Origin: an uncultured Clostridium sp.
GTDB lineage: Bacteria; Bacillota; Clostridia; TANB77; CAG-508
NCBI GenBank assembly: GCA_948473335.1
Contig: CAOKXF010000001.1
Location: 137,379 to 201,378, forward strand
DNA: 64,000 nt
Direction of reading: 5' to 3'
The translations under genes were made by a program, and so were the position numbers. This document shows, one piece after another, positions 6,453-35,135 of the stretch (position 1 is its first letter; each line of letters starts with the position of its first letter). The notes beneath the pieces are model-generated. The model did no database searches, was not told the DNA's origin, and saw only the letters and a program-made list of their open reading frames with translations.

Positions 6453-8303
<1,851 letters not shown>

Positions 8304-8449: not shown

Positions 8450-9610
8450 ATGGCAGATAAAAGAGACTATTATGAGGTTTTAGGTGTAGAAAAGACAGCA
8501 ACAGATGAGGAATTAAAAAAAGCATATAGAAGATTAGCAAAAAAATATCACCCAGATGCTAATCCAGACAATAAAAAAGAAGCAGAAATAAAGTTTAAGG
8601 AAGTAAATGAGGCATATGAAAATTTATCAGATCCGCAAAAAAGGAAGATGTATGACCAATTTGGATTTGATGGACCACAAGGATTTGGAGGAGGCCAAGG
8701 ACCATTTGGGCAAGGAGGATATTATTCATATAGTGGAGGATTTGATGGATTTTCAGATTTTGGGGATTTAGGAGATATATTTTCATCATTTTTTGGTGGA
8801 GGAACAAGAACATCTTCAAGAAGAAATAATGGACCTAGAAAAGGTGCAGATTTAAATTTAAATATGGAGATAACATTTGAAGAAGCATATTTAGGTGTAG
8901 AAAAAGAAGTAGTTATAACAAGAAATGAAACATGTAATACTTGTAATGGAAGTGGAGCAAAACCAGGAACAAGTGTAACAAAATGTTCTGTATGTAATGG
9001 AACAGGTCAAGTAAGGCAAGTACAAAATACTATACTTGGACAAATGCAAACAACAAGAACTTGTAGTAATTGTCATGGAACAGGAGAAGTCATCAAAGAA
9101 CCTTGTGATACTTGTAGAGGTAAAGGTACAGTTAGAAAGCAACCTAAAATTAAAATAAAAATACCAGCAGGAATAGATGATAATCAAACAGTAGTATTAA
9201 GAGGAGAAGGTGAACCAGGAGAAAAAGGTGGACCAAAAGGAGATTTATATATAACTGTTAGAATTAAAAAGCATAATATTTATACAAGAAAAGGTATAAA
9301 TATATTTTGTGAAGTTCCAATTACTATTACACAAGCAACACTAGGAGCAGAGCTTGAAATACCTATGGTAGATGGAACAAAGGAGACATATAAAATTCCT
9401 GATGCTACTCAAACAGGAACTAAATTTACTATAAAGAACAAAGGATTTAAATCTTTAAATTCTAGTGTAATAGGAGATTTTATATTTACTGTTATTGTGC
9501 AAACTCCAAAAAAATTAACATCAGAACAACGTGAATTATTAGAAAAGTTAGCTAAGACTATGAATGAACAGCCACCTATTAAGAAAAAAAGTTTTTGGGA
9601 TAAATTATAA
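8450..9610 (+). CDS. dnaJ: Molecular chaperone DnaJ (Hsp40)
   Basis: J-domain HPD motif (KKYHPDAN), G/F-rich region and four CxxCxGxG zinc-finger repeats. Start set at MADKRDYY because a GAGGAAA SD precedes it. Confidence 0.95.
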
Positions 9611-9635
9611 AACAATGATTTTACATATATAATTA

Positions 9636-9664
9636 AAACAGGTAACTCAATTTACCTGTTTTTA
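9636..9664 (+). terminator. Intrinsic terminator after dnaJ
   Basis: aacaggtaa/ttacctgtt stem followed by a T-run. Confidence 0.7.
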
Positions 9665-9685
9665 GATAAGAGATAGATATAAAAA

Positions 9686-9714
9686 CTTGACTTTTAGGCA
9701 GAAAGAGGTTAATA
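9686..9714 (+). promoter_or_regulatory. Candidate promoter (TTGACT-17-TAATAT) for the small GC-rich ORF
   Basis: Hexamers with 17-nt spacing lie about 50 nt upstream of the SD. Confidence 0.45.
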
Positions 9715-9760
9715 TAAAATTATAGACATAAACTGTAAACGTAAAGAAAGGAGTATTACA

Positions 9761-9976
9761 ATGATTGAACGTGCAAAAACAGTTGAGATTCGTACCGCAG
9801 GAGGGTACAGGCGCCGGATAACAGTGATGGATTCAGTGATGACGACCAAATCACTGAGAAAAATCCTCAAAAGATTTGGCGGAGAAGAGAAGGAACAATA
9901 CTACTGGTTTGAAGACAGAAAGAGGTATAATGATGTCATAAAGAAACTTTGTGACGAAGGAGCTTTTGTAAATTAG
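9761..9976 (+). CDS. Orphan small basic protein (71 aa) in a GC-rich islet, function unknown
   Basis: AAAGGAG SD 7 nt before ATG. It has its own promoter, and a GC-rich terminator hairpin sits at 9996-10026. Codon usage (cgt, cgc, cgg, ggg, ctg, acc) and roughly 45-50% GC contrast sharply with the very AT-rich surrounding sequence. No recognised family. Confidence 0.4.
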   Translation: MIERAKTVEIRTAGGYRRRITVMDSVMTTKSLRKILKRFGGEEKEQYYWFEDRKRYNDVIKKLCDEGAFVN

Positions 9977-9995
9977 TTAGTCAAAGTAATACCAA

Positions 9996-10026
9996 GAAGG
10001 GATGCCAAGTTATAGGGCATCCCTTC
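9996..10026 (+). terminator. GC-rich stem-loop terminator after the small ORF
   Basis: gaagggatgcc/ggcatcccttc 11-bp stem. Confidence 0.6.
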
Positions 10027-10206
10027 GTAATATATAGAAACACTTTATGAAGTTAAATAAAATTTTATTTTCGAAACAAGATTCAAAGATTTTTACATAT
10101 ACAATGAGATTAAGTTATCTTTTTCTAAAACAAAAAAATTAAGAACTAGTATAAAAAAACTTGCTTTATTGACATGAATATAGTAAAATATAAAAGGAAA
10201 GAAGGA

Positions 10207-10857
10207 ATGAAAATGGGCAAGAAATCCCTTACAAAAGAAATAATAGAATGGATATTATGCTTTATAATAGCAATAGTAATAGCATTATTAGTAAGATATT
10301 ATATAGGAACACCAACAGTAGTAAAAAATGTATCAATGAATCCAACATTAGTAGAAAACGAAAGATTATGGTTAAATAGATTCAGCAAAACAACAAAACA
10401 GAAATTAGAAAGAGGAGACATAGTAACATTTGAAGCACCATCAACAATAGAAGTAAGAAGTCATGATATTGATTTATCAAATCCTGTAGCAAAGTATGAA
10501 AGAAAAGTAGAAGGTGCATTTAACAAATTTACATATTATGTATTAGAAATAAATAAAACAAGCTATATAAAAAGAGTAATAGGATTACCAGGAGAACAAG
10601 TACAAATAGAAGAAGGAAATGTTTATATAGATGGTAAAAAGCTAGAAGAAAAATATCTACCAGAAGGGTTAGTAACAGATATGAGAAGTGGACTATTTAA
10701 TGATTTTAAGGTACCAGAGGGGACATATTTCTTACTAGGAGACAATAGACCAGAAAGTACAGACAGTAGATTCTTTGGATGTATACCATATGAGAAAATA
10801 GAAAGTGTAGTAGCATTTAGATTTTGGCCATTTAATTTATTTGGAAAAGTAAGATAA
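10207..10857 (+). CDS. lepB: Signal peptidase I
   Basis: N-terminal TM segment, catalytic Ser region (NPTLVENERL) and GDNRPESTDSR box D/E. The start is set at MKMGKK after a GGAAAGAAGGA SD, because the upstream ATG at 10174 lies inside the putative promoter (TTGCTT-17-TAAAAT). Confidence 0.8.
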   Translation: MKMGKKSLTKEIIEWILCFIIAIVIALLVRYYIGTPTVVKNVSMNPTLVENERLWLNRFSKTTKQKLERGDIVTFEAPSTIEVRSHDIDLSNPVAKYERKVEGAFNKFTYYVLEINKTSYIKRVIGLPGEQVQIEEGNVYIDGKKLEEKYLPEGLVTDMRSGLFNDFKVPEGTYFLLGDNRPESTDSRFFGCIPYEKIESVVAFRFWPFNLFGKVR

Positions 10858-13231: not shown

Positions 13232-13308
13232 GCTCCCTTAGCTCAGTTGGTTAGAGCAACCGGCTCATAACCGGTAGGTCCAAGGTTCAAGTCCTTGAGG
13301 GAGCACCA
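13232..13308 (+). tRNA. tRNA with CAU anticodon. It is either elongator Met or lysidine-modified Ile2, and it is not the initiator type
   Basis: The cloverleaf can be drawn by hand: 7-bp acceptor stem gctccct/agggagc, D-arm agctcagttggttagagc, anticodon loop ctCATaa, T-arm caaggttcaagtccttg and an encoded CCA. There is no C1:A72 mismatch and no 3-GC anticodon stem, so it is not initiator. Confidence 0.85.
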
Positions 13309-34498: not shown

Positions 34499-34588
34499 AA
34501 ATAATAAAAAATTGATATACTAATGGCAAATCAAAAAAGATATAAAAAAATAGGACAAGATTTGTCCAAAAAGAAAGGATGATTTAAT

Positions 34589-35023
34589 ATGGAAGAAAAC
34601 AAAATTGAAGAAATAAAAGAGGAAATAGTAAAAGAAGAAACATTAGGAGAAAATACAGGAATAAAAATATCAGATGAAGTAATAGCAGTAATAGCAGGAG
34701 TAGCAGTATCAGAAGTAAATGGAGTAGCTGGAATGCAAGGAAAATTTGGAGGAGGAATAGGAGAAGTATTAAGTGGTAAAAAGAATTTAGCAAAAGGAAT
34801 AAAAGTAGAAACAATAAATGAACAAGCAAAAATAGATGTAAACATAATAGTAGAATATGGAGCAAGAATACCAGATGTAGCATTTGAAATACAAAACAGA
34901 GTAAAGAAAGCAGTAGAAGGAATGGCAGGATTAAAAGTATCAGAAGTAAATGTACATGTGCAAGGAGTAAATATAGAATCAGATAGTAAAGAGCAAACAG
35001 AACAAAAAGGAACAGCAGAATAA
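34589..35023 (+). CDS. asp23: Asp23/Gls24-family envelope stress protein
   Basis: The ISDEVIAVIAGVAVSEVNGVAG pattern is typical of Asp23. Confidence 0.8.
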   Translation: MEENKIEEIKEEIVKEETLGENTGIKISDEVIAVIAGVAVSEVNGVAGMQGKFGGGIGEVLSGKKNLAKGIKVETINEQAKIDVNIIVEYGARIPDVAFEIQNRVKKAVEGMAGLKVSEVNVHVQGVNIESDSKEQTEQKGTAE

Positions 35024-35066
35024 TAAAAACAAAAGACATAAAAATTTTATATAGGAAACATTCAAA

Positions 35067-35096
35067 CCTCAGCAAAATCCAAGTTTTTTGCTGAGG
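35067..35096 (+). terminator. Intrinsic terminator after asp23
   Basis: cctcagcaaaa/ttttgctgagg stem with an internal T-run. Confidence 0.6.
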
Positions 35097-35135
35097 AAAG
35101 ATTGTATGCATTAGGAAAAGGAAGGAAAAAGAAAG

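Follow-up and report, generated by a model that had tools for sequence, protein, structure and literature searches.

How a small gene comes to carry GC-rich synonymous codons in a strongly AT-rich genome, and what keeps them there, is the question raised by an islet in a 64,000-nucleotide stretch of DNA from an uncultured Clostridium sp. (contig CAOKXF010000001.1, positions 137,379 to 201,378). This stretch is referred to here as the window, and coordinates without a locus label are positions within it. The islet (9686-10030) lies between dnaJ and lepB and contains an open reading frame (ORF) of 71 codons. The initial annotation listed a promoter, a Shine-Dalgarno (SD) sequence, the ORF and internal and 3' hairpins at this site; all are present, confirming a self-contained unit with a promoter-like site, an SD sequence, an ORF and a hairpin. 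The codons were attributed to a foreign origin. The results described here point, with moderate confidence for the explanation as a whole, to a different answer: the islet would be a translated small-protein gene in a mobile cassette of about 400 bp, the GC-rich synonymous codons of which are kept by selection for a compact mRNA fold, closed by a predicted helix between the ribosome-binding site (RBS) and the 3' end.

The atypical composition of the islet relative to its neighbours was borne out. The ORF has a GC content of 0.407, versus 0.271 for the window, and a GC content at third codon positions (GC3) of 0.41, far above the mean of 46 window genes (0.139, standard deviation 0.034) in the codon comparison that the initial annotation had suggested. 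A GC3 of at least 0.40 occurs in none of 13,774 in-frame 72-codon windows, and a GC content of 0.407 is reached by 0.02%. The ORF has 25 codons ending in G or C, versus 7.6 +/- 2.6 expected from its amino-acid composition and the codon usage of the window. This is not a small-gene effect, given that eight other small window genes with a plausible RBS have synonymous GC3 (GC3s) values of 0.05-0.12.

The anomaly extends to the whole family to which the ORF belongs. DNA was obtained for 13 family members, from loci with a GC content of 25-36% (25-30% for all but two of them, and 26.6% for a copy in a mobile element). Synonymous GC3, with Met and Trp codons excluded, is 0.18-0.37 in the first ten members, versus 0.08-0.13 in the flanking genes, and 0.32, 0.25 and 0.23 in three further members; in 13/13 it is 1.5-3.7 times that of the neighbours. 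Conditioned on amino-acid composition, the excess is individually significant in eight of the first ten members. Some members share less than 30% protein identity with one another (down to 27%), and all keep a raised GC3; the codon anomaly has, thus, lasted longer than amelioration could plausibly take. Searches of 5.8 billion clusters and 1.84 billion representatives yielded no GC-rich relative. The GC-rich codons look like a family-wide adaptation for mRNA folding, rather than the mark of a donor. A 91-aa ORF downstream of the cassette in locus L037 (L037 1084-1359) has no Pfam match and a synonymous GC3 of 0.29, versus 0.11 for the upstream GNAT gene.

The link to folding comes from the permutation of synonymous codons within the coding sequence (CDS), a procedure in which neither the protein nor the codon set nor the GC content changes. 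The native CDS is predicted to fold better than its synonymous permutations in 13/13 members, with a mean z of -2.4 and a range of -0.6 to -3.9 (individual values -3.9, -0.6, -0.9, -3.9, -3.4, -3.4, -0.6, -2.2, -3.4, -3.9, -0.7, -2.8 and -1.5). For 45 control segments of window genes, the mean z is -0.21 (standard deviation 1.13) and no value is at or below -3; the difference between members and controls (Mann-Whitney P = 1e-5) is unchanged when clades are collapsed to eight lineages. In 13/13 members, the native CDSs are also 12-31 kcal/mol more stable than recodings with host codons (z -2.4 to -9.0). The complete transcript in the window (9722-10030) has a predicted minimum free energy (MFE) of -86 kcal/mol, with identical MFE and centroid structures and a z of -7.58 relative to dinucleotide shuffles, versus -36 +/- 12 kcal/mol for the 308-nt gene starts of the window, used as a control. 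The transcript of L013, encoding a protein 27% identical to that of the window, has almost the same score (z = -7.56). The minus strand of the window transcript folds more weakly (-64.9 kcal/mol, z = -4.5), which argues for selection on the RNA strand, in which G-U pairs count, rather than on the DNA.

The fold refers to the following elements of the window copy:
9635-9662, + strand: upstream hairpin AAAACAGGTAA...TTACCTGTTTT, terminator-like by scan
9687-9692, + strand: -35 box TTGACT, consensus match
9710-9715, + strand: -10 box TAATAT, separated from the -35 TTGACT by a 17-nt spacer
9747-9753, + strand: SD sequence AAAGGAG, 7 nt before the ATG at 9761
9753-9784, + strand: 5' strand of the predicted closing helix (last SD base and spacer GUAUUAC, UGAUUGA of codons 1-3, UGCAAA, AGUU)
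9761-9976, + strand: CDS of 71 codons, MIERAKTV...GAFVN, with coding evidence from homologues
9812-9817, + strand: adjacent rare Arg codons CGC-CGG (R18, R19), paired in the predicted fold with UUUGGCG of codons F39-G41
9833-9840 and 9850-9857, + strand: internal 8-bp hairpin TCAGTGAT/ATCACTGA, in both the MFE and centroid folds
9961-9993, + strand: 3' strand of the predicted closing helix (last codons, stop codon, UUAGUCA and the motif GUAAUACC of the 3' untranslated region (UTR) at 9986-9993)
9996-10006 and 10016-10026, + strand: terminal 11-bp GC-rich hairpin GAAGGGATGCC/GGCATCCCTTC, loop AAGTTATAG

In the MFE structure, the closing helix is predicted to consist of four segments:
9753-9759 (GUAUUAC, last SD base and spacer) paired with 9986-9992 (GUAAUAC, 3'UTR)
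9762-9768 (UGAUUGA, codons 1-3) paired with 9977-9983
9772-9777 paired with 9965-9970
9781-9784 paired with 9961-9964

The motif GUAAUACC lies 10 nt past the stop codon, in a 3'UTR of about 55 nt, and a 3' motif of the form (A/U)GUAAUACCAA recurs right past the stop codon in other genomic contexts (L012, L016, L028, L038 and L039). Pairing between the RBS/start region and the stop/3'UTR region is present in the predicted folds of 11/13 members (nine of the first ten, together with L037 and L039), and one further member carries complementary motifs without the helix in its predicted fold. The expected number of pairs between the RBS and the stop region is 7.7-16.9 in nine members, versus means of 1.2-8.6 for shuffles of the 5' window; the corresponding values for L026 are 0.5 and 0.2. 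In all ten members, a proportion of 0 to 0.15 of the shuffles (N = 40 each) gives as many pairs as observed. Cognate 5'/3' duplexes have an energy of -8.5 kcal/mol, versus -6.9 kcal/mol for non-cognate ones (permutation P = 0.003). The helix segments differ between members yet remain complementary, as in the GUAUUAC/GUAAUAC of the window and the pairs below:
L009: 5' GUAUCAU, 3' GUGAUAC
L026: 5' ACUAC, 3' GUAGU
L013: 5' GGUAUUAC, 3' GUAAUACC
L016: 5' AGGUACUGA, 3' UUAGUACCU
L012: 5' GGUGUUAA, 3' UUAAUACC
L028: 5' GGGGUUAUA, 3' UGUAAUGCC
L039: 5' GGUGUUAC, 3' GUAAUACU
Judged from these motifs, the variants of the helix are compensatory. The position after dnaJ had prompted the idea of an RNA thermometer, which was dropped, as the other members have no heat-shock genes nearby.

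On comparative grounds, ORF 9761-9976 is a real protein-coding gene. Four close homologues (70-100% identity) occur in the same dnaJ-ORF-lepB-holB order. Among close homologues, the ratio of nonsynonymous to synonymous substitution rates (dN/dS) is 0.10-0.25, similar to that of lepB and holB; in pairs across the deepest splits of the four, third positions account for 29-34 of the 45-59 differences, with no indels. Altogether, 13 homologous ORFs of 70-75 aa are intact and free of frameshifts, at identities as low as 27%. Only about 15 homologous clusters were recovered when 1.84 billion representatives were searched with a profile and 5.8 billion clusters by index; all are of 70-75 aa once one over-called start is trimmed, and none has a name or a Pfam domain. 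The protein had been described as matching no recognized family, and this description held: Pfam, NCBIfam, PHROGs and PADLOC, queried both with the window protein alone and with the whole family, gave nothing significant or consistent (PADLOC yielded isolated single-member matches only, the best with E = 0.0012), the best match in a PDB sequence/profile search had E = 0.085, and Foldseek searches of PDB and BFVD with the protein model gave no match at E <= 0.001. That model, built by AlphaFold2 (AF2) from a four-sequence alignment, has a predicted local distance difference test score (pLDDT) of 85 and a predicted beta-beta-alpha-beta-alpha(-beta) fold. The invariant residues are chiefly hydrophobic core positions and glycines, and the isoelectric point (pI), 9.7 for the basic protein of the window, ranges from 5.8 to 10.1 over the family; neither catalysis nor nucleic-acid binding is, therefore, indicated, and basicity was dropped as a hint of nucleic-acid binding given this range.

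The gene travels as part of a larger unit. Members were found in at least six genomic contexts: dnaJ-lepB, U32 peptidase/VCA0040-SpoU-thrS, lexA-Smr, upstream of plsX, an interval between an unknown gene and a CDP-alcohol phosphatidyltransferase gene, after a GNAT gene, and a mobile element. The suggested check for presence or absence in relatives revealed an empty site in a closely related uncultured Clostridium sp. (L029, found by a GTDB scan with LepB), in which the 199 nt from dnaJ to lepB (L029 2810-3000) contain just a hairpin and the lepB promoter, with no cassette. LepB and DnaJ of L029 are 85% and 94% identical, respectively, to those of the window. The cassette is, thus, polymorphic for presence and absence at the dnaJ-lepB intergenic site. 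Over six dnaJ-lepB loci, nucleotide identity is 86-96% in the flanks, 64-88% in the UTRs of the cassette and 52-88% in the CDS. For the window and L013, protein identity is 95% for DnaJ, 83% for LepB, 79% for HolB and 27% for the small protein. The nucleotide identity of dnaJ is 0.90 for both the window-L006 and the window-L013 pairs, and that of the CDS is 0.78 and 0.52, respectively. Equal identity in dnaJ with unequal identity in the CDS implies that the genealogy of the cassette differs from the species tree, which argues for replacement or exchange, not just fast evolution.

The whole architecture recurs, with a CDS 54% identical, in a human-gut metagenome contig (L039/L040), in which the cassette adjoins a divergent RepA_N replication-initiator gene and is flanked by two large serine recombinase genes:
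L039 44-1189, 4322-4825 (- strand) and 6486-7172: mobile-element genes (RepA_N and two large serine recombinases)
L039 cassette, in order: hairpin GAACAGGTAA...CCTGTTC; promoter TTGACTTTT-17-TAACAT; 5'UTR AAGAAAGAGGTGTTACAATG; CDS; 3'UTR GGTAATACT; terminator
This variant corresponds to the most recorded cluster (P0005), with 19 member sequences on about 100 contigs. In L026 and L027, the interval from dnaJ to the cassette holds a 46-aa ribbon-helix-helix (RHH) ORF (L026 1677-1817, L027 861-1001; positions 1-39 of the 72 in the DUF6290 profile), the last codons and stop codon of which form the -35 and -10 boxes of the cassette. From its sequence, this ORF resembles an antitoxin-like gene that has been truncated. 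The dnaJ-lepB spacer may therefore be a hotspot for small modules, with the cassette inserted into an older one of them in these two loci. Searches with the family by tblastn against phages and plasmids, with two alignments against viral contigs, and with the close-homologue alignment in a GTDB scan gave no match or locus. A direct repeat flanking the cassette (AAAAACTTGACTTT versus AAAAAACTTGCTTT) was considered as a target-site duplication and rejected, as only -35/UP-element similarity is involved and this is weak in L013. An integron gene cassette, a promoterless ORF with an attC site in an array beside intI, was also rejected: the unit is a single one with a promoter of its own, no integrase lies nearby, and the loop GTTATAG departs from the GTTRRRY core when compared by eye. 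Taken together, the distribution of the loci indicates that the cassette is accessory and mobile in low-GC gut Clostridia. The "horizontally acquired mini-cassette" of the initial annotation therefore stands as regards its accessory and mobile nature, to which the empty site in L029 and the element in L039 attest; the foreign cause proposed for its codons does not.

The mechanism proposed from these data is as follows. The cassette, of about 400 bp, would comprise an insulating hairpin, a promoter, a 5'UTR, the CDS, a 3'UTR and a terminal hairpin. In low-GC gut Clostridia it would move from one intergenic site or mobile element to another. GC-rich codons would fold the mRNA into a compact domain, and the multi-segment helix would join 9753-9784 to 9961-9993, just before the terminal hairpin. 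Such a closed fold may restrain ribosome access, shield the message from ribonucleases (RNase Y, RNase J), or both, giving a message that is stable yet poorly translated, from which a fast-evolving effector would be made only once the helix is opened, whether through processing, by a trans factor or by temperature. The very rare codons, and CGG in particular, may act as a further translational brake. On the best reading, the cassette would encode a small accessory protein that is tightly controlled at the post-transcriptional level. A bolder form of this mechanism can be put forward only tentatively, as it seems improbable: a self-locking mobile module in which a fast-evolving, possibly toxic or conflict-related effector would be gated in cis by the closing helix and the near-unassigned CGG codon, with no antisense RNA, and in which selection for the fold would override an extreme AT bias at synonymous sites throughout the family.

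Bacterial RNAs that are both coding and structured include SR1/SR1P and RNAIII/hld. Like the predicted cassette mRNA, these transcripts are translated and under selection for RNA structure, but their ORF is a minor part of a base-pairing small RNA with known targets, whereas the cassette ORF occupies 216 of about 310 nt. Messages closed by pairing between their own ends are closer relatives in design. The icaR mRNA of Staphylococcus aureus is controlled post-transcriptionally by base pairing between its 5'UTR and 3'UTR (PMC3868564); both this message and the cassette transcript are monocistronic Firmicute mRNAs whose ribosome-binding region is paired (in the cassette, by prediction) with a motif in their own 3'UTR. 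The long 3'UTR of icaR carries a UCCCCUG anti-SD motif that covers the SD sequence itself and recruits RNase III, whereas the cassette 3'UTR is about 55 nt long and its helix would extend from the last SD base through the spacer and AUG into the first codons; the cassette CDS also differs in being GC-enriched and over-folded throughout. The hbs mRNA of Bacillus subtilis has a 14-bp interaction between its 5' and 3'UTRs that modulates cleavage by RNase Y (PMC5737220), and this helix affects RNase access and couples stability to translation initiation. Here too a Firmicute small-protein gene has a short, stable transcript with a long-range 5'/3'UTR helix, both stability and helix being predictions for the cassette. 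In contrast to the accessory, fast-evolving 71-codon ORF, hbs belongs to the conserved core and has normal codon usage, and its helix sits in a long structured leader rather than over the start codon. From its modelled fold, the cassette mRNA would be a 5'-3'-closed mRNA of a known type (icaR, hbs), encoding an orphan protein and bearing an unusually clear family-wide signature at synonymous sites in a background of 27% GC.

Several observations weigh against selection for a closed fold. Every structure discussed here is a thermodynamic prediction, and predicted folds tend to pair the ends of an RNA anyway. RNAalifold, applied to a 10-member codon alignment, found no shared register-conserved structure inside the CDS, so the internal fold would have to be lineage-specific, and the idea of a single conserved non-coding RNA fold was dropped for lack of a consensus; the consensus fold of the four close homologues has almost no covariation within the CDS (covariation term -1). 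In four members the permutation z is only about -0.6 to -0.9, and the helix is missing from the MFE structure of L026. Duplex tests on single sequences are weak (shuffle fractions 0.003-0.5), the predicted occlusion from SD to AUG is only modestly higher than in other genes (0.55 versus 0.44, P = 0.016), and the helix includes only the last SD base. Rare codons or GC-biased gene conversion could each raise GC3 without structure. The 3' hairpin lacks a U-tract, and read-through into lepB is, thus, possible.

Four other explanations were considered. One, which seems unlikely, is that the ORF encodes the toxin of an addiction module or toxin-antitoxin system resembling type I, in which a closed mRNA would block production of a harmful protein until processing and the RNA antitoxin would have gone unrecognized. 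Type I toxin mRNAs (hok, aapA1, fst) hide their RBS through a 5'-3' long-distance interaction (T1TAdb, PMC8594479; PMC6733600). The predicted architecture of the cassette mRNA fits theirs, as a compactly folded, self-contained transcript (150-400 nt in the known systems, about 310 nt here) with SD sequestration, a 5'-3' interaction and a terminal stem-loop (PMC8594479). The locus is also accessory and hypervariable, as type I loci often are, frequently on or near mobile elements: single copies lie beside RepA_N in a mobile element, next to lexA, and behind the truncated RHH antitoxin-like ORF. Rare codons would, moreover, limit expression. However, no conserved minus-strand promoter overlaps the CDS or 3'UTR in ten loci, in a search by sequence only that a non-canonical promoter or a trans-encoded RNA could escape, and the product is a 71-aa, charged and, according to its model, soluble alpha/beta protein rather than a hydrophobic membrane peptide of 20-60 aa. 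There is no conserved partner gene over six or more contexts, PADLOC found nothing consistent, the phage, plasmid and viral-contig searches were without match, and the gene is under ordinary purifying selection. Membership of the type I toxin-antitoxin systems is, thus, not supported. The similar mRNA design, taken with the accessory, hypervariable and mobile-element-linked nature of the locus, nevertheless leaves some small probability for a role as a toxin or in conflict. A type II pair was rejected, because the upstream RHH ORF is present in L026 and L027 only, where it is truncated, and the other contexts contain no partner.

A further possibility, also unlikely, is that codons ending in G or C are selected or tolerated for reasons other than folding, with CGG codons acting as brakes or sensors of tRNA availability, or through GC-biased gene conversion at a recombination hotspot. 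The distribution of CGG fits the first of these ideas. The enrichment falls mainly on the rarest codons. CGG accounts for 12/56 Arg codons in ten family members, versus 1/538 in the window genes (a 77-fold enrichment), and at least one CGG is present in 12/13 members; CTC, CTG and CGC are enriched 34-fold, 15-fold and 14-fold, respectively, with CGC accounting for 3/538 Arg codons of the window genes. The CGG at R19 is kept in L001, L006, L009 and L016, the last of these being 57% identical and in another context. Gene conversion would be in keeping with the discordant genealogy and raised synonymous divergence (dS) of the cassette, which indicate frequent recombination or replacement, but it would not single out CGG. 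Neither process predicts folding that depends on the arrangement of the codons, or complementary 5' and 3'UTR motifs outside the CDS. Both could be compatible with selection on structure, as co-factors alongside it.

Recent acquisition from a GC-richer donor, with codon usage as an un-ameliorated donor signature, was the explanation originally given for the "foreign" codons, and it now appears improbable. The accessory nature of the cassette, the empty site in L029, the copy in a mobile-element context and the genealogy discordant with the flanking genes are what such an acquisition would produce, and a dS two to three times that of the flanks, with GC3 values of 0.42, 0.29, 0.22 and 0.24 between lineages, could resemble ongoing amelioration. 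However, GC3 is raised in 13/13 members, all in AT-rich loci of 25-36% GC and several less than 30-40% identical, by which stage amelioration should be complete; none of the 5.8 billion clusters or 1.84 billion representatives contains a homologue from a GC-rich source; and a donor signature does not predict that synonymous permutations preserving GC content should fold much worse than the native CDS. The donor explanation is, thus, already largely refuted.

The last explanation, a non-coding structured RNA with a fortuitous ORF, is hardly credible: the strong structure it was based on does exist (transcript z = -7.6, GC enrichment in an AT-rich genome, conserved 5'-3' pairing), but a fortuitous ORF would not have a dN/dS of 0.10-0.25, a third-position bias, 70-75 codons free of frameshifts down to 27% identity, a conserved SD spacing and a confident protein model, the family has no register-conserved internal structure, and the Rfam 15 covariance models, which might have revealed a known non-coding RNA, gave no match over 9400-10400 even at E <= 1.

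The remaining features of the islet bear on its borders. TTGACT-17-TAATAT is a sigma-70-type promoter-like site matching the consensus at 9/12 positions, and the promoter call at 9687-9715 is defined by this match only; the form TTGACTTT-17-TAA(T/C)AT is kept in 6/6 dnaJ-lepB loci and in L037 and L039, homologous cassettes of three contexts. The SD block AAGAAAGGAG is invariant across the four close homologues, and SD spacing is conserved among family members. The terminal hairpin (9996-10026), presumed to serve as a terminator and 3' stabilizer, is kept in L006 and L009 with G-U and compensatory changes. The claim that it is a terminator held for the GC-rich 3' hairpin itself but not for the rest: it is followed by CCCTTCGTAATAT rather than by a U-tract in the window, and a terminator scan gave no call. 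A T-run is present after this hairpin in some homologues. The upstream hairpin (9635-9662) serves as the dnaJ terminator and is probably an insulator at the left edge of the cassette. In the mobile-element copy, this AACAGG...CCTGTT hairpin again lies ahead of the cassette promoter (L039 4875-4899), with no co-directional gene upstream; it may, therefore, be part of the cassette. It is also found at L013 5892-5913, and the empty site of L029 retains both of its arms, around a 55-nt loop.

Other observations concern the surroundings of the islet. A minus-strand promoter-like site (9711-9739; TTTACA-17-TATATT or TAACAT) points from the ORF towards dnaJ and is found at the same place in L006, L009 and L013; its recurrence follows from the palindromic -10 region (ATGTTAACAT in relatives), and it may be incidental or a divergent promoter. 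Downstream, an AT-rich stretch of about 100 nt (10030-10140), including a 31-codon ORF (10047-10142), is missing from L001, L013 and L026; it is an insertion peculiar to the window lineage, and its content is not conserved. The promoter block of lepB itself (10161-10221, AAAAAACTTGCTTT...TAAAAT) is strongly conserved, and homologue gene calls (214 aa) place the lepB start at ATG 10213, not at the upstream ATG 10174 of the mechanical ORF list. Elsewhere, a 175-codon ORF on the minus strand (34584-35111; GC at second positions 0.10, GC3 0.29) is unlike the real genes of the window. It is probably not a gene, and was left out of later codon statistics. The tRNA-Met (CAT) gene at 13232-13308 is the sole tRNA gene of the window, and the tRNA at 13232 is its only Rfam match at gathering level.

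The analysis defines a tiny orphan protein family, of about 15 clusters among 5.8 billion, in which the small protein could be an effector, a regulator or a toxin. Codon anomalies in AT-rich genomes are routinely taken as signs of horizontal transfer; here the anomaly is family-wide, in hosts that are just as AT-rich, and tracks RNA folding. A literature search for comparable cases of synonymous sites and structure in AT-rich genomes returned nothing specific. The cassette family would, thus, provide a clean natural example of selection at synonymous sites for mRNA structure, and a caution for the calling of genomic islands from composition. Bacterial mRNAs with 5'-3' closure are very few (icaR, hbs and the type I toxin mRNAs); the predicted message of the cassette is a candidate addition to them, and it offers natural compensatory variants of the closing helix. 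If the bolder form of the mechanism is true, the cassette would represent a kind of mobile expression module not described before, one that locks itself.

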